A stretch of DNA of 25,968 bases. It comes from a virus. Lineage: Duplodnaviria; Heunggongvirae; Uroviricota; Caudoviricetes. Under the pieces are notes generated by a model, which had not been told where the DNA came from, did not search any database, and was given only the letters and a program-made list of their open reading frames with translations. The stretch spans positions 1 through 25,968 of IMG/VR virus record IMGVR_UViG_2541047695_000005; one strand, written 5' to 3'. Shown here piece after piece: positions 494 through 18,562 of the stretch. How positions within the stretch are numbered: the first letter of the stretch is position 1; each line of letters begins with the position of its first letter. The position numbers were made by a program, and so were the translations under genes.

Positions 494-1068
494 CGCTTTA
501 TTACCATTCTCAGTTGATGCTGCAGCGCATAGCCCAGCTCTTTCGGAAGACGTTCACGCCGTATCCGTTCAATATTCTGTTTAAACGCCGTGGTCAGCGG
601 CACCGCCATCGGGATTTTCACCACATCAATGGGGTAACGGTTTTTCCCGGCCACACGATGCATGACATGCCAGCGGCCATTTTTCAGTTGCTGAATAAAC
701 GCGCCGGGAATACGACGGTTTCCCACCACAAGCACGCTGCCGCCACCTTTCAGGGCTGAACGCTGCCCCTTTTTACGACGCCTGCGTCGGGACAGGACAA
801 TCCGCGCGTTACCCAGCTTTATTACGGGCAAATCCCCCCGGTTAACCCTGATTCTGGCCTGCGGATTTTTGACCGTGGCCCTTTTCAGCCTGGCCCTTTC
901 CTTTACCAGTTTCCGGCGTACCTTTGTCTCACGGGCAACCTGTGACGCCGACTGCGATATCGCGGATGAAGCAACGCGGTTAATGGCCATTGCGGCGGCA
1001 CCAGGCACCGCCGTTTTGCTGATACGGCTGAGGTTTTCAACGGCCTGCTCAAGACCTTTTATGGCCAT
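490..1068 (-). CDS. Z: head-tail joining / tail completion protein Z
   Basis: 192-aa ORF, identical in length and position to lambda gpZ; basic RRRRRKKG stretch. Confidence 0.85.
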   Translation of the reverse strand: MAIKGLEQAVENLSRISKTAVPGAAAMAINRVASSAISQSASQVARETKVRRKLVKERARLKRATVKNPQARIRVNRGDLPVIKLGNARIVLSRRRRRKKGQRSALKGGGSVLVVGNRRIPGAFIQQLKNGRWHVMHRVAGKNRYPIDVVKIPMAVPLTTAFKQNIERIRRERLPKELGYALQHQLRMVIKR

Positions 1069-4624: not shown

Positions 4625-8305
<3,681 letters not shown>

Positions 8306-11110: not shown

Positions 11111-11578
11111 TCATCGAAGGCATTGCGTCCTAATGTATTCCTGAAGCGTTCTCAGTGCTGTTTGGTCGCGGATAATTCCGTCCCGGATATCGAGAACGTT
11201 TCGTCCAGCAACTGGAGAGAGTTCGACGGTGGCATCATTGCCCATGCCGGAGGCGCTGGAGGTTTCGGCTGAGGATGGCACAGGGCATTTTCCTTTGACG
11301 AGCACCCTGCCACCATTATCAAGCTTCCGCAGAAGAGCATCATTTTCAGCTTTCGCATCAGCTAACTCCTTCGTGTATTTTGCATCGAGCGCAGCAACAT
11401 CACGCTGACGCATCTGCATGTCAGTAATTGCCGCGTTCGCCAGCTTCAGTTCTCTGACATTTTTGTCGCGCTGGGCTTTGTAGGTAATGGCGTTATCGCG
11501 GTAATGATTAACAGCCCATGACAGGCAGACGATGGTGCAGATAACCAGAGTATAAATAATCGCTGCGACTCTGCTCAC
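11111..11578 (-). CDS. Rz: i-spanin Rz
   Basis: GTG start (residue 6 of the track ORF) overlaps the lysozyme stop (GTGA); the N-terminal part ...[69 protein letters not shown] closely matches lambda Rz, the C-terminus diverges. Confidence 0.85.
11152..11358 (-). CDS. Rz1: o-spanin Rz1 (lipoprotein, embedded in the +1 frame of Rz)
   Basis: 68-aa ORF wholly inside Rz; signal peptide with lipobox (LIMVAGC) followed by a proline-rich segment ([11 protein letters not shown]), resembling lambda Rz1. Confidence 0.75.
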
Positions 11579-12108
11579 TGATCTATCCCCCAACAGGCTA
11601 ATGCGCTTTCCTGGTCACGACGAATAACCTGTCCATAGCAGTTATTTGAACGTATGCGGCAATCGCGCCCACCATCTTTTATCCACCAGCGAATCGCCTC
11701 GCATGCGCCCTTACGATCACCGGCATTCAGCCGCTTATAAAACGTCGACGGGAAACACTTACCGGGGCCAATGTTATAGGGACAGAATGACGCTATACCC
11801 GCTTTCTGTGGTTCGGTCAGTGGTACTTTAATATTGCGCTCCACCCATGCCAGCGCCTTATCACGTTCAATAGCGTTAACCTGGTCGCATTTTTCCTTCG
11901 ACAGCCTCATTCCCGGTATGACGGGCTTACCATCCACCATTGTGGCACCACGACAGATGGTCCATATACCGGAACCATCGCGGTATGCCGTTGTGTGGTT
12001 ACCTTCTTTTTCATCCAGAAACTGGTCGAGAATATCAGGCGCAGGCGCACCGACGGCAATCAGTGCCAGAACGGCAGCCGACAGGCCGTATCTGATTTTT
12101 GCGTTCAT
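11575..12108 (-). CDS. R: SAR endolysin (T4-lysozyme-like glycoside hydrolase, RrrD/RrrQ/R21 type)
   Basis: 177-aa ORF with a Gly/Ala-rich N-terminal hydrophobic segment ([19 protein letters not shown]-like) and the catalytic spacing E-8-D-5-T ([16 protein letters not shown]); strongly resembles the K-12 Qin/DLP12 prophage lysozymes as I recall them. Confidence 0.9.
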
Positions 12109-12213
12109 GGATATTTATCAGGATTTATCGGTTTCTGAACCCTGGATATGTTTATCTGTCCCGGCCTGTTGAATCAGGCAAGGAATAGTTAAATACAATA
12201 GAGAGGATTGTTT

Positions 12214-12486
12214 ATGGACAATAGCACCATTTCTCTACAGGAGTTGCTCGACTGCATTTCCAAGCTTCGGGATGATGTAAATGCCCTTACTGTCGCATTT
12301 TCATATCTGGCATTCTCAATTCCCAAGGAACAAATGCAACCAACACTGGCATCGCTCCAGCTTGAATCACTCAACCCCAAATGGTCCCAGCAACAACAAA
12401 ATTCTTTCAAGTGGCTGGCGGTATTACTGGAAGAAAAATATGCTGGTGAAATTACCATTTCGGCGGAGTCTTCAGTGAACCAGTAA
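12214..12486 (+). CDS. hypothetical 90-aa protein, opposite strand inside the lysis cassette
   Basis: ATG at 12214 preceded by GAGAGGA at 6-nt spacing; protein-like composition (MDNSTISLQELLDCISKLRDDVNALTVAFSYLAFSIPKEQ...). The antisense ORF 12189..12521 has a Ser/Cys/Trp-rich composition typical of non-coding frames. Confidence 0.4.
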   Translation: MDNSTISLQELLDCISKLRDDVNALTVAFSYLAFSIPKEQMQPTLASLQLESLNPKWSQQQQNSFKWLAVLLEEKYAGEITISAESSVNQ

Positions 12487-12796
12487 TTCTTCCCGGCAGT
12501 TTTCCTTTGTAGGTTATCCACACACCCTGCGCCTCTAAAATTATGGGGCGCTTTTCCGGTGACTGCTCATCCCCTTCACATAACCCGGCAGCAACATCCA
12601 GGAAGACCTGTCTGATGCTCCTTCTGGCTGCTGCCTCATAAAACTCCAGCGCGGCACCTTCAACACGGTCCAGCGAGATGTCCAGGTCTAAAATTTCACC
12701 GTCAAAGCGTTTTTTGTCCCGTAACGCTAAAGTTACCGTAACTTTATTCTCAAAATTGCGGATCCCTTTCACAATCAGTTCATAGTTTTGAGTCAT
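12452..12796 (-). CDS. YdfR-like (DUF1327) protein between holin and endolysin
   Basis: 114-aa ORF MTQNYELIVKGIRNFENKVTVTLALRDKKRFDGEILDLDISLDRVEGAALEFYEAAARRS...; position and N-terminal sequence resemble Qin YdfR; RBS GGAGAG 7 nt upstream. The C-terminal about 35 residues differ and overlap the convergent ORF 12214..12486. Confidence 0.55.
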   Translation of the reverse strand: MTQNYELIVKGIRNFENKVTVTLALRDKKRFDGEILDLDISLDRVEGAALEFYEAAARRSIRQVFLDVAAGLCEGDEQSPEKRPIILEAQGVWITYKGKLPGRITGSLKTPPKW

Positions 12797-12800
12797 TGAA

Positions 12801-13016
12801 TTACTCTCCCCGTGCCGCCTTACGACGGTCCTCTCTGATTTTGAAATACAGGTTAGTCAGATATGTCAGCAGCCCAAACAGCAGACTTCCCAGCACGCCT
12901 ATTGCCGCCCACTGAGACGGGGAAACCCTGTCCAGCAACTGCAGGAACCAGTAGCCCGTTCCCACCGCTGACGTGGTGTATGACACACCTGTTGTGATTT
13001 TTTCCATCTGGTCCAT
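12801..13016 (-). CDS. S: holin/antiholin, phage-21 S-type pinholin with dual start
   Basis: From residue 36 of the track ORF: [71 protein letters not shown], 71 aa; two in-frame Met codons three codons apart (13016 and 13007), two TM helices and a charged C-terminus, near-identical to S21 as I recall it. Confidence 0.85.
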
Positions 13017-13165
13017 ACCCCGTCTCCCGTTATCCGGAAGCTGACAACAATAAAAAAGCCACCAGTTAACTACTGATGGCTCTGATAACTCATGCAAGCG
13101 TCTCAGACGACCCACTGACACTACCGGTGAGTTTAACGATACCTTCCATTTGACTGGCTCACTTT

Positions 13166-13327
13166 TTATGATGATGCCGGTGCATTTATCTCCAGCGCCA
13201 GACTTTCTATCTCAACGCCATACGTTGCATTTTTGGTAATATCCGTCAGCGTCAGTGCATTTAGTCCCACTGCCAGACTGTCTTTAATGGCCTGGAATGC
13301 CGGGCCAGTACGATGACGTAGTATCAC
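13166..13327 (-). CDS. hypothetical small protein (53 aa), GTG start coupled to the upstream stop
   Basis: My hand translation gives GTG overlapping the TGA of the upstream gene (GTGA) and an open frame to TAA; it is below the track's 60-aa cut-off and unverified. Confidence 0.2.
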
Positions 13328-13512
13328 TCCGGCTCAGTTGCACCACTGACCACCACATCACCTTCTGCTGCAATCGCCTGCATCAGGGTATAAGGGGTTA
13401 TGGCCACCGGACTACCAAACGGCTGCCAGCCCTCTTTCAGTTTATGTGTCAGCTTTTCCGCAAGATCTGACGGCGGCGCCGCCCTGACAACATCATAGTG
13501 TTTAAATGCCAT
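13324..13512 (-). CDS. small conserved phage protein (DUF1737-like) upstream of the holin
   Basis: ATG at residue 5 of the track ORF with GGAAAG RBS; MAFKHYDVVRAAPPSDLAEKLTHKLKEGWQPFGSPVAITPYTLMQAIAAEG fits the short GWQP.G family commonly found just upstream of lambdoid holins. Confidence 0.5.
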   Translation of the reverse strand: MAFKHYDVVRAAPPSDLAEKLTHKLKEGWQPFGSPVAITPYTLMQAIAAEGDVVVSGATEPE

Positions 13513-13772
13513 GGTTCTTTCCACTATCTGAAAAATAATTCTTTAAAATACCTGACATGTAATACAGAAAAAACACAAAACTATACCTTAAATAAAAACC
13601 TGATTATCAAGCAGATATGCATGGATAAACTACAAGACGAGATATAAACCACCCTGCATTTAAATAAACAATAAACAACATCAGAAAAATAATTCTGCTC
13701 TATGGTTTACATTCAAAAATATCATTTATACTTTTCAGGACATCACCAGCAAGGCATAAACAAGGAAACCAA

Positions 13773-14108
13773 ATGAAGTGGATTGTGATTGATACAGTTA
13801 TCCAGCCATCATGCGGAATATCTTTTTCAGTCATATGGAGTAAAATAAAATTAATAATCTGGTATCAATCGGATGCTTTCTTACCTCCTGAAAGTATATT
13901 TACACTGACTCACACAGGCATCATGCTCAATAACAAAGTGCTACCTGTAACCATTTACAACGTAGTACCATTCAATAAAACATTCTGGAATTTAATCAAA
14001 AACAGCCAGGAATGCCCTACAAATACAGATAACGTATTGAATGAATGCTTTAATAACCGTTGCACTCTGCAAATATGTCCTTATGGACTAAAACAACAAA
14101 GTCCATAA
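13773..14108 (+). CDS. hypothetical Cys-rich 111-aa protein (moron, own promoter)
   Basis: ATG preceded by AAGGAA at about 7 nt; upstream TTTACA-15 nt-TATACT promoter-like motif at about 13706-13732; very AT-rich; C-terminal Cys pattern [26 protein letters not shown]; a hairpin (CAGCCCCTC-CGGA-GAGGGGCTG) about 35 nt downstream. Confidence 0.4.
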
Positions 14109-14555
14109 GGAGTTTACTCACATCTGACAAAATCAATATAAACAGCCCCTCCGGAGAGGGGCTGGAGAGTGGCGCTATGTGCCATTGCATGGTGCCGGGT
14201 GCCTCCCGGTGAATTCAGTACCAGCACCTGAATCCGCGATTATCCCATATACCTACTCGCTGATTGCCCCTCCGCACAGGGGGATTCACCATGCCAGTTT
14301 CTTTTAACAAACTCCCCGCAAACCAGACAACAGTCAACCGCCTGAATTGTGAAGTATTTAAAAATTTCTCCCGCTAACTGATACCCGGCTAACAGTCTGG
14401 CGTTTTCTTTTTCAGCAACGGAAAAGCAACAACCACCACACCTGCCACCAGCACACCGTCAGCCAGCACTGACATTATCCGGCTGCTGCAATGCCATTCA
14501 CAAAAACAGTAAGCAATCACTTTTTACCGTAACAGGTGATAATCCAGATATGTAT

Positions 14556-15019: not shown

Positions 15020-15095
15020 TGGCGCGCTGTACTGGATTTGAACCAGCGACCTGGCGATTATGAGTCGCTCGCTCTCACCACTGAGCTAAAGGACC
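15020..15095 (-). tRNA. tRNA-like gene, anticodon CAT (Ile2/Met-type), acceptor stem unpaired - probable pseudo-tRNA
   Basis: The minus strand aligns arm by arm with the E. coli tRNA-Ile2 cloverleaf (D-arm GCTC-AGTGGTGA-GAGC, anticodon loop CTCATAA, T-arm GCTGG-TTCAAAT-CCAGT, encoded CCA), but the 5' acceptor GGTCCTT cannot pair with the 3' ACAGCGC. Confidence 0.5.
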
Positions 15096-18231: not shown

Positions 18232-18387
18232 TTACTCCTCAGGTTCGTAGACTGTGAAGACAGCGACCTCCGTCTGGCCGGTTCGGATTCGTACCTCGCA
18301 GAGGTCTTTCCTCGTTACCAGTGCCGTCACTATGACGGTTAAACAGATGACGATCAGGGCGATTAACATCGCCTTTTGCTGCTTCAT
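18232..18387 (-). CDS. hok: Hok/Gef family type I toxin
   Basis: In-frame ATG at residue 20 of the track ORF gives MKQQKAMLIALIVICLTVIVTALVTRKDLCEVRIRTGQTEVAVFTVYEPEE (51 aa), near-identical to E. coli HokD as I recall it. Confidence 0.85.
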   Translation of the reverse strand: MKQQKAMLIALIVICLTVIVTALVTRKDLCEVRIRTGQTEVAVFTVYEPEE

Positions 18388-18444
18388 AGCCTGCTTCTCC
18401 TTGCCTTTCGGCACGTAAGAGGCTAACCTAGATTTGCCGTTCAT
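18232..18444 (-). CDS. mok: mok-like N-terminally extended frame (70 codons) overlapping hok
   Basis: The same frame extended upstream by 19 codons; 70 codons equals the classical mok length in hok/mok/sok loci. Confidence 0.5.
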   Translation of the reverse strand: MNGKSRLASYVPKGKEKQAMKQQKAMLIALIVICLTVIVTALVTRKDLCEVRIRTGQTEVAVFTVYEPEE

Positions 18445-18500
18445 AGATTGAGCCTCAGATTAATGTTAAGCGTCTTGCAGGACGCGTAATGTTAACTGGG
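18430..18500 (+). ncRNA. sok: putative Sok-like antisense RNA (bounds approximate)
   Basis: Plus-strand TTGCCT-17 nt-TAACCT at about 18401-18429 would start a transcript antisense to the mok start region; a GCGTC-TTGCAG-GACGC hairpin lies at about 18471-18487. Inferred from hok/sok architecture, not verified. Confidence 0.3.
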
Positions 18501-18562
18501 GCTTTTCTCTATCTGCCTTTGGTGTTCATGCCTGAGACAGATAGCCTCAAGCACCCGCAGCC

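Follow-up and report, generated by a model that had tools for sequence, protein, structure and literature searches.

Sequence comparison indicates that a 90-amino-acid (aa) open reading frame (ORF), here called ORF90, which lies antisense to the late genes within a lambdoid lysis cassette, is a genuine protein-coding gene, already annotated and uncharacterised. The DNA analysed, referred to as the window, is the whole stretch of 25,968 nucleotides (nt) in IMG/VR record IMGVR_UViG_2541047695_000005 (Caudoviricetes), positions 1 to 25,968. Its lysis cassette occupies the minus strand in the order S holin, ydfR-like gene, R and Rz/Rz1, with ORF90 on the plus strand between R and the ydfR-like gene (Table 1). 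With a probability of about 0.62, we consider ORF90 to be a lysis-operon moron and one half of a mobile module of leader, ORF and convergent partner, the partner being fused here to ydfR. This module would comprise an AT-rich leader of ~100 nt with conserved motifs and a covarying hairpin, a gene of the ORF90 family, and a small late-strand partner that is convergent, overlaps the ORF at its 3' end and carries a conserved C-terminal tail. ORF90 represents no new kind of system.

An earlier note on this DNA, made from the sequence alone, had described a plus-strand 90-aa ORF with a good ribosome binding site between R and the ydfR-like gene, overlapping the last ~35 nt of the latter. The ORF and its orientation are borne out, and the overlap measures 35 nt (12452-12486). 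The GAGGATT of the ORF90 Shine-Dalgarno region is kept in every E. coli allele examined.

Coding Evidence for ORF90

The whole of ORF90 (residues 1-90) aligns with profile positions 1-90 of 90 in phrog_2411 (E = 4.3e-59), a family in the PHROG category 'unknown function'. RefSeq lists the protein as hypothetical protein WP_000370546.1, and the UniProt cluster with the exact sequence is named "Ybl58". PGAP annotates the gene in BL21(DE3), CFT073 and other genomes, and the identical protein is present in BL21(DE3), where it lies in the Rac remnant (ECBD_RS11710 in BL21-Gold), and in CFT073 (HW370_RS14805). No mention of WP_000370546, Ybl58 or phrog_2411 was found in the literature searched.

The homology search proposed in the earlier note yielded, besides the phrog_2411 match, both close and remote relatives. 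Among 5.8 billion proteins, 63 close homologues were found, nearly all from Escherichia or Shigella, at 74-99% identity and mostly of exactly 90 aa. An exhaustive profile search (18 representatives) added remote homologues (26-55% identity, 81-106 aa), spread over the Enterobacterales. These remote relatives have in common the core motif ELL..I..LR..VN.L..AFSYLAFS...E....T...L.(F/L)ES.N. A second profile search brought the number to 127 proteins, all labelled 'hypothetical', from Serratia, Sodalis, Acerihabitans, Chania, Gibbsiella, Chimaeribacter, Citrobacter and Atlantibacter. The DNA of the remote relatives aligns with the window in the ORF core only, or nowhere; conservation therefore acts at the protein level, and ORF90 is a real gene.

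A rival explanation would make ORF90 a chance or shadow ORF, antisense to late-strand coding or regulatory sequence, with no gene at the site. The length of ORF90 is in itself not beyond chance, since the ORF listing holds similarly long shadow ORFs (110-112 aa) in the same region. Pairwise ratios of nonsynonymous to synonymous change (dN/dS) among ORF90 alleles are 0.2-0.4, with dS up to 0.45. Summed over five alleles, dN/dS is ~0.25 in the ORF90 frame and 0.19 in the antisense frame that shares its wobble positions, the only other frame with a low value, which is open in the window over 110 codons. This ambiguity is settled because the antisense frame has one or two stops in five alleles (L087, L088, L089, L092 and L093) in which ORF90 is intact, and because remote protein homologues exist whose DNA cannot be aligned outside the core. 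Variable sites number 20, 14 and 35 at the first, second and third ORF90 codon positions, the usual order (third > first > second), which fits the plus frame and not the antisense frame. We regard the shadow-ORF explanation as refuted by the antisense stops and the remote homologues, and its chance of being correct as negligible.

The protein is acidic (isoelectric point (pI) 4.4; family range 4.4-5.9). Like the family as a whole it is free of membrane segments, and it has no signal peptide; its maximum 19-residue Kyte-Doolittle hydropathy is 0.88. An AlphaFold model built on a 33-sequence alignment places helices at residues 8-35, 38-52 and 59-77 (predicted local distance difference test (pLDDT) 80, predicted template modelling score (pTM) 0.52). 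ORF90 is thus predicted to be a soluble three-helix protein. Disorder is predicted for the final ~11 residues (pLDDT <50), whose codons lie opposite the ydfR tail. ORF90 had no match in Pfam or NCBIfam, and neither ORF90 nor YdfR matched any family among the PADLOC models at E <= 0.1.

The Convergent Partner in Other Prophages

The anatomy of the module was read from six prophage contexts, and in every one of them the ORF90-family gene is antisense to the late genes. In an Atlantibacter hermannii prophage (P0068; L094), the order is tail M, a 71-aa minus-strand gene convergent with the plus-strand ORF, the leader, a late-strand terminator and tail L. Metagenomic prophages (P0080; L115) show the tape measure gene, a 46-aa minus-strand gene convergent with the plus-strand ORF, the leader, a late-strand terminator and tail M. 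A Citrobacter freundii prophage (P0079, 63% identical; L107) has a 63-aa minus-strand gene convergent with the plus-strand ORF, then the leader, holin, lysozyme and Rz. At the P0067 locus (L099), a 62-aa minus-strand ORF converges on the plus-strand ORF, and the leader is followed by phrog_4567 and phrog_2473 (late-strand, unnamed) and by terminase genes. The earlier note's suggestion that ORF90 could be a moron is strengthened by these relatives at other late-operon positions, always antisense, and by a GC content below that of the flanks.

The 3' ends of the prophage relatives overlap the small late-strand ORF by 4-20 nt. The partner ORFs start with MTLE(E/Q)RVE(I/V)LEK or a similar sequence and end in the tails KITGSLRAPIKL, IFGDLKKPPSY, RLTGDILIPLES and IYGELMKPVC, of the same type as the tail of the window YdfR (GRITGSLKTPPKW). 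The shared tail motif is (I/L)(T/Y/F)G(S/D/E)(L/I), with a Pro two or three positions further along. The partner tails of the remote loci fall largely outside the overlap with the ORF, and it is therefore the partner protein that is under constraint. When the four partners were made into a profile, it retrieved 20 small proteins, all hypothetical, from Citrobacter, Salmonella, Atlantibacter and Kluyvera. Within the 35-nt overlap of the window, the YdfR tail is nearly invariant and the ORF90 tail variable. It seems that the ORF90 frame merely extends into the partner gene as far as the first stop.

The YdfR C-Terminus

The window YdfR scores 141.8 bits against PF07041 (DUF1327), for which the cut-off is 25, and K-12 YdfR covers the whole of the model (1-93/93, 180 bits); the last 45 residues of the window protein taken alone reach 13 bits. 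In DNA and protein alignments, the window YdfR departs from K-12 YdfR from about residue 69, near window position 12590. The earlier note had proposed that the 3' end of ydfR was remodelled. The C-terminus does differ from the family, and the difference extends over ~45 codons instead of the last 35 nt (~11 codons).

From these comparisons, we infer that the partner half of the module was fused in frame to the YdfR N-terminal domain and that the module spans roughly 12119-12590, about 470 bp. Such a fusion would explain the unusual C-terminus of the window YdfR, and it would account for the several C-terminal versions of YdfR proteins. Profile searches found no link between the partner family and DUF1327; the proteins retrieved with the partner profile have no Pfam domain, and the Pfam model misses the partners.

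YdfR proteins as a group are mosaic, with N-terminal ~68 residues shared and at least four C-terminal versions (103, 114, 116 and 183-211 aa). The reference for this comparison was the K-12 MG1655 gene (L106, 1640054-1640365) set against window positions 12452-12796.

K-12 YdfR interacts with RNase E through the catalytic half of that enzyme, and RNA accompanies the protein on purification (PMC13232886). The shared N-terminal part of ~68 residues is the one reported to bind RNase E. Overproduction of K-12 YdfR had limited transcriptome effects, and no toxicity was reported (PMC13232886). This was the only relevant ydfR paper in the literature searched, and the K-12 protein that it concerns does not have the window-type tail.

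The Leader and Its Hairpin

About 100 nt upstream of the ORF are conserved across remote contexts, with TATCAGG, a -10-like TATG(T/A)T or TAAGGT, and a hairpin with covarying stems. In the window, TATCAGG is found at 12116-12122 and the -10-like TATGTT at 12147-12152. L094 and L099, two of the remote loci, keep both motifs, which also occur upstream of an unrelated 86-aa gene, ORF86, in Stx-type cassettes (L004, L003).

Hairpins equivalent to that of the window lie at 4926-4947 in L094, at 4925-4946 in L099, at ~1565-1585 in L004 and upstream of the ORF in L107 and L115. The stems read CGCCAGTG/CACTGGCG, GTCAGCG/CGCTGGC and CGACTGTG/CACAGTCG, with GCCTG/CAGGC in the window; remote loci have GGTGGGA or GTAGGA in the loop, and E. 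coli cassettes with ORF90 have TTGAAT or TTGCCT. Across nine loci, 90% of the cells were paired, and 6 of 8 pairs were changed on both sides. None of 500 shuffles reached the observed value, and slid controls gave 23-49%. At the gathering threshold, Rfam reported no known RNA family in the leader of the window, L004, L094 or L099. Minus-strand folds of the leader gave z-scores of -1.7 to -2.5, somewhat better than most plus-strand folds.

Two candidate promoters lie in the leader. TTTATC-17-TATGTT would give a 5' untranslated region of ~55 nt that holds the hairpin, and TTGAAT-19-TACAAT is the alternative (Table 1). A scan of window positions 11500-13300 found no plus-strand terminator 3' of ORF90.

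In remote relatives, a mini-frame consisting of a Shine-Dalgarno sequence and ATG(G/A)CTGATTAA, three codons (MAD or MTD) and a stop, is conserved before the main start. It lies at 4968-4979 in L099, at 4971-5000 in L094, and ~25 nt upstream of the main ATG in L101 and L115/L116. The L094 mini-frame reads through in frame to give a 98-aa form (P0077), and Citrobacter has ATT for ATG. CTGATAAAC is kept in ORF86 cassettes, and the window has only a vestige, GGAATAGTTAAAT. Intrinsic terminators on the late strand are found at 4856-4873 (-) in L094, AGCCATCTCCGGATGGCT-TTTTT, and at 834-851 (-) in L115, AGCCGCCATAGCGCGGCT-TTTTT. These terminators, a stem followed by TTTTTATGGG, separate the leader from the tail gene that comes next in each of the two tail-operon versions, and the window has none. 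They would halt late-strand transcripts that cross the module without antitermination.

Features of this kind recall type I toxin-antitoxin (TA) systems such as hok/sok and ralR/ralA, which are likewise compact prophage units with overlapping opposite transcription and a structured leader; some ORF90 relatives add an upstream mini-frame and a late-strand terminator beside the leader. The corresponding explanation, that the family protein inhibits growth and that its 5' leader is the target of a cis-antisense RNA from the late strand, would draw on the structured and conserved leader, on the terminator right beyond it in the tail-operon versions (L094, L115), and on the mini-frame with its SD-ATG(G/A)CTGATTAA ~25 nt before the main ATG, reminiscent of mok/hok-type leaders. 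However, the window has neither terminator nor mini-frame, its R gene begins where the leader ends, and scans of window positions 11500-13300, L094 and L115 found no minus-strand promoter. No antisense RNA gene or promoter was found, and Rfam reports no known antisense RNA at the ORF90 site, detecting sok in the window only elsewhere (18382-18556). ORF90 is acidic, soluble and not hydrophobic, unlike most type I toxins, and the family gene persists as a stand-alone gene on the Serratia chromosome. We therefore hold a type I TA-like arrangement to be very improbable.

Cassette Types and Distribution

The cassettes were counted over 5426 complete E. coli genomes. DNA specific to ORF90 was present in 1139 genomes (1249 places), which is about one in five and includes the laboratory strain BL21(DE3) and the uropathogen CFT073. 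The 5' part of the window-type ydfR was present in 3634 genomes (4854 places), so that ORF90 occupies 1249 of about 4854 ydfR-type loci. The ORF-less junction of the vB_EcoS-611R1 type was found in 989 genomes (1106 places), and the unrelated 86-aa reverse-strand gene (phrog_2572) in 314 genomes (335 places). The ORF90 allele of the window is intact and identical in hundreds of genomes. By tblastn against 50,697 GenBank phage records, members of the ORF90 family were found in three Escherichia phages only. The inducible phages that carry ORF90 include Escherichia phage Chlobot and phiSTEC1575-Stx2k. Salmonella Gifsy-2 grvA, a reverse-strand gene of a tail operon, had been considered as a relative and was dropped, as the same search, made with one family member, returned no Gifsy phage.

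Judged from these alignments, the interval from S to R is a mosaic hot spot with at least four states. In phage vB_EcoS-611R1 and similar ORF-less cassettes, ~274 bp are missing, roughly window positions 12180-12452. The Stx-type cassette has a different, larger segment at the ORF90 site and a longer YdfR (183-211 aa). In K-12 Qin, ydfR (103 aa) overlaps the start of rrrQ, with no spacer and neither ORF90 nor the 86-aa gene. Alignment with Qin had been proposed in the earlier note, together with the idea that ORF90 came in as a small insertion of about 300 bp. The figure is close to the ~274 bp that are gone from the otherwise near-identical vB_EcoS-611R1-type cassettes, but the unit that we would delimit is larger, about 470 bp (12119-12590).

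Of the module, the ORF-less cassettes still have the partner tail and the left part of the leader, and loss of the ORF by deletion accounts for them more simply than a state before insertion. Cassettes of the K-12 type have no ORF, no tail and no leader beyond ~10 nt next to the R start codon, and because all three are missing they may represent the module-free state. In phiSTEC1575-Stx2k, the lysis genes that come after a block of S, ydfR, ORF90 and leader are of a different set; the leader and ydfR therefore go with ORF90 and not with R. The GC content is 38% in the leader and 44% in ORF90, compared to 52% in R, 54% in S and 50% in the whole window.

In E. coli B strains (L005, BL21-Gold(DE3), 11945-13844), S-ydfR-ORF90-R-Rz lies inside the Rac remnant, between trkG and ydaF/sieB. 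This places the lysis cassette outside its normal prophage context.

ORF86, the 86-aa gene of other cassettes, resembles ORF90 in several ways. It has the same place and orientation between R and ydfR, is convergent with and overlaps YdfR (the longer one in ORF86 cassettes), is small and acidic (pI 4.3), and is preceded by a leader homologous to that of ORF90, with a GGTGGG-loop hairpin. No sequence relationship between the two proteins was detectable: BLASTP found nothing and hhalign gave a probability of 0.6%. The label 'DUF1823 containing' that ORF86 carries in phage PhiR5_1 corresponds to a sub-threshold match (E = 0.023, 15 bits vs a cut-off of 25).

Proposed Role and Comparison with Known Systems

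Because of the orientation of ORF90, we propose that the gene would be transcribed from its own promoter in the leader (12109-12213) while the prophage is repressed, and that convergent, Q-antiterminated late transcription would silence it during lytic growth. The protein may be a cytoplasmic binder of some other macromolecule, whether a host factor or the tail of the partner/YdfR, and would probably not act as a membrane exclusion or lysis protein. The earlier note had suggested a superinfection-exclusion or lysis-timing factor. Such a role finds no backing in a protein that lacks both a membrane segment and a signal peptide and that matches nothing in PADLOC, Pfam or NCBIfam, and the structure search that the note also had in mind gave no informative structural match. 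Superinfection-exclusion proteins of the SieB, Sim and HK97 gp15 type are marked by membrane localisation, which ORF90 is not predicted to have.

Morons, a concept of Juhala and Hendrix, are defined by their own promoter and terminator and are expressed from the repressed prophage. The bor gene of lambda lies on the strand opposite to late transcription, next to Rz; both Bor and Lom carry signal sequences and belong to the envelope. ORF90 resembles lambda bor and lom as a small accessory gene in the late region of a lambdoid prophage, and bor in its position on the strand opposite to late transcription. As in morons of the bor/lom type, its base composition is below that of the flanks, and it is present or absent among otherwise syntenic phages. 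Unlike Bor and Lom, ORF90 is acidic and cytoplasmic with no membrane segment, and no sequence or fold relationship to them was found. Unlike bor, it lies inside the S-R interval instead of after Rz, and it comes with a conserved leader and a convergent partner.

Several observations weigh against the reading of ORF90 as an expressed moron within a module. A strict sigma-70 scan of 11500-13300 on both strands found no promoter. The score of TTTATC-17-TATGTT was not above background in a lenient position weight matrix scan, and TTGAAT-19-TACAAT has a 19-nt spacer and a predicted start inside the Shine-Dalgarno sequence. The hairpin segments were picked by eye before pairs were counted, and what links YdfR residues ~70-105 to the partner family is a short motif with no significant alignment. 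Fold and sequence searches with ORF90 gave no functional lead and no informative homologue. An 85-aa convergent ORF beside P0074 does not have the tail motif. Partner-less members of the family occur on chromosomes: in Serratia and relatives between dinI and bssS, and in Sodalis and an environmental lineage. These members imply that the protein can work without a partner, which weakens any reading as an obligatory two-component system. Premature stops are present in 3 of 23 unique ORF90 DNA alleles, all singletons, and frameshifted 94-aa forms (P0045, P0049, P0051 and P0058) occur in several complete genomes. In these forms, the frame changes after about residue 58. Loci L055, L078 and L080 belong with the broken alleles. 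The nonsense and frameshift alleles show that the gene is dispensable and sometimes decaying.

These broken alleles would also suit the explanation that ORF90 is a conserved relic hitch-hiking in a recombination hot spot of the lysis cassette, unexpressed or useless here. Four cassette types make the S-to-R interval highly mosaic; ORF90 is missing from K-12 Qin and from 1106 otherwise similar loci, and only 3 of the 50,697 phage records have it. A mere passenger is nevertheless hard to reconcile with purifying selection at dN/dS 0.2-0.4 among alleles with differences at as many as 45% of their synonymous sites, and with a protein core kept down to 26% identity across genera. Most alleles encode exactly 90 aa, and the window allele is intact and shared by hundreds of genomes. 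We consider this explanation decidedly unlikely.

The partner-less members bear most directly on another alternative, in which ORF90 is an antidote or regulator of its late-strand partner, here the YdfR tail. In the lysogen, ORF90 would neutralise leaky partner or YdfR, and its transcript would run antisense into ydfR and the holin gene; in lytic growth, late transcription would silence ORF90 and free the partner. This explanation is suggested by the conserved-tail, convergent and 3'-overlapping partner in five independent prophage contexts, and temporally opposite transcription units follow from the gene orientations. Since the K-12 protein binds RNase E at its catalytic domain and is purified together with RNA (PMC13232886), leaky expression could plausibly be harmful. 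However, orthologues with no partner are conserved on the chromosomes of Serratia, Sodalis and others, K-12 YdfR was overproduced with limited transcriptome effects and no toxicity reported (PMC13232886), that protein does not have the tail, and PADLOC gave no match. An antidote role is therefore judged unlikely.

A broader proposal, which we find quite unlikely as a whole, is that the leader, the ORF90-family gene and the tail-bearing partner form an undescribed mobile two-component switch. ORF90, made only in lysogeny, would check a partner or YdfR-type effector, late transcription would release the effector, and the module would have been captured by Serratia and Sodalis chromosomes. If this were true, convergent transcription would tell lysogeny from lytic growth. 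For the reading of ORF90 as a moron with a fused partner, the understanding of phage lysis cassettes is unchanged, as ORF90 would be an ordinary moron with an unusually well defined architecture. The module and its apparent fusion to the gene of RNase E-binding YdfR provide a concrete target for work on the function of prophage accessory genes.

The chromosomal members were seen in the following settings. On a Serratia-like chromosome (L104, 5001-5279), a 92-aa member (X) lies in the order rne, pyrC, dinI, X, bssS, solA. This member is kept throughout the Serratia species and has the look of a partner-less chromosomal copy of the gene that is phage-borne in E. coli. The members in Sodalis and the environmental lineage sit among ordinary chromosomal genes.

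Feature Coordinates and Neighbouring Features

Table 1. Features of the lysis cassette around ORF90 (window positions) and of ORF86 (positions in its own loci)
Feature	Position	Strand	Remarks
ORF90 coding sequence	12214-12486	+	ATG 12214-12216, TAA 12484-12486; 90 aa
Shine-Dalgarno GAGAGGA	12201-12207	+	GAGG at 12203-12206, 7 nt 5' of ATG
Leader/intergenic element	12109-12213		No strand set; 38% GC; travels with ORF90
Candidate promoter TTTATC-17-TATGTT	12124-12152	+	Invariant in E. coli alleles; -10 kept in remote loci
Alternative candidate promoter TTGAAT-19-TACAAT	12169-12199	+	Score in top ~5% of background
Hairpin GCCTG-TTGAAT-CAGGC	12164-12179 (about 12161-12182)		Strand of use not set; positional equivalent of remote covarying hairpins
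ydfR-like gene, late lysis operon	12452-12796	-	114 aa, DUF1327; convergent with ORF90
YdfR C-terminal ~45 codons	12452-12590	-	Diverge from K-12/Pfam-type YdfR; end ...GRITGSLKTPPKW
ORF90/ydfR 3' overlap	12452-12486	both	35 nt, convergent
Antisense shadow ORF, 110 codons	12189-12521	-	Non-gene; stops in divergent alleles
Endolysin R (Phage_lysozyme)	11575-12108	-	Divergent from ORF90 across 105-nt spacer
Phage-21-type class II holin S	12801-13016	-	First gene of the cassette
Rz/Rz1	11111-11593	-	
ORF86 (phrog_2572)	L004 1621-1881; L003 1621-1881 (unannotated in that record)	+	86 aa; Stx-type and PhiR63_1-type cassettes

Elsewhere in the window, Rfam returned three matches at the gathering level. 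These were the small RNA STnc100 at 14134-14323 (-) with 132 bits, a possibly truncated tRNA at 15030-15089 (-) that covers only model positions 7-64 of 71, and the sok antitoxin RNA of a hok/sok locus at 18382-18556 (-) with 110 bits. A gene for an IraM-like anti-adaptor lies just upstream of the lysis cassette at 13773-14108 (+), as it does in CFT073 and phiSTEC1575-Stx2k, and is a second reverse-strand accessory gene in the late region of the window.

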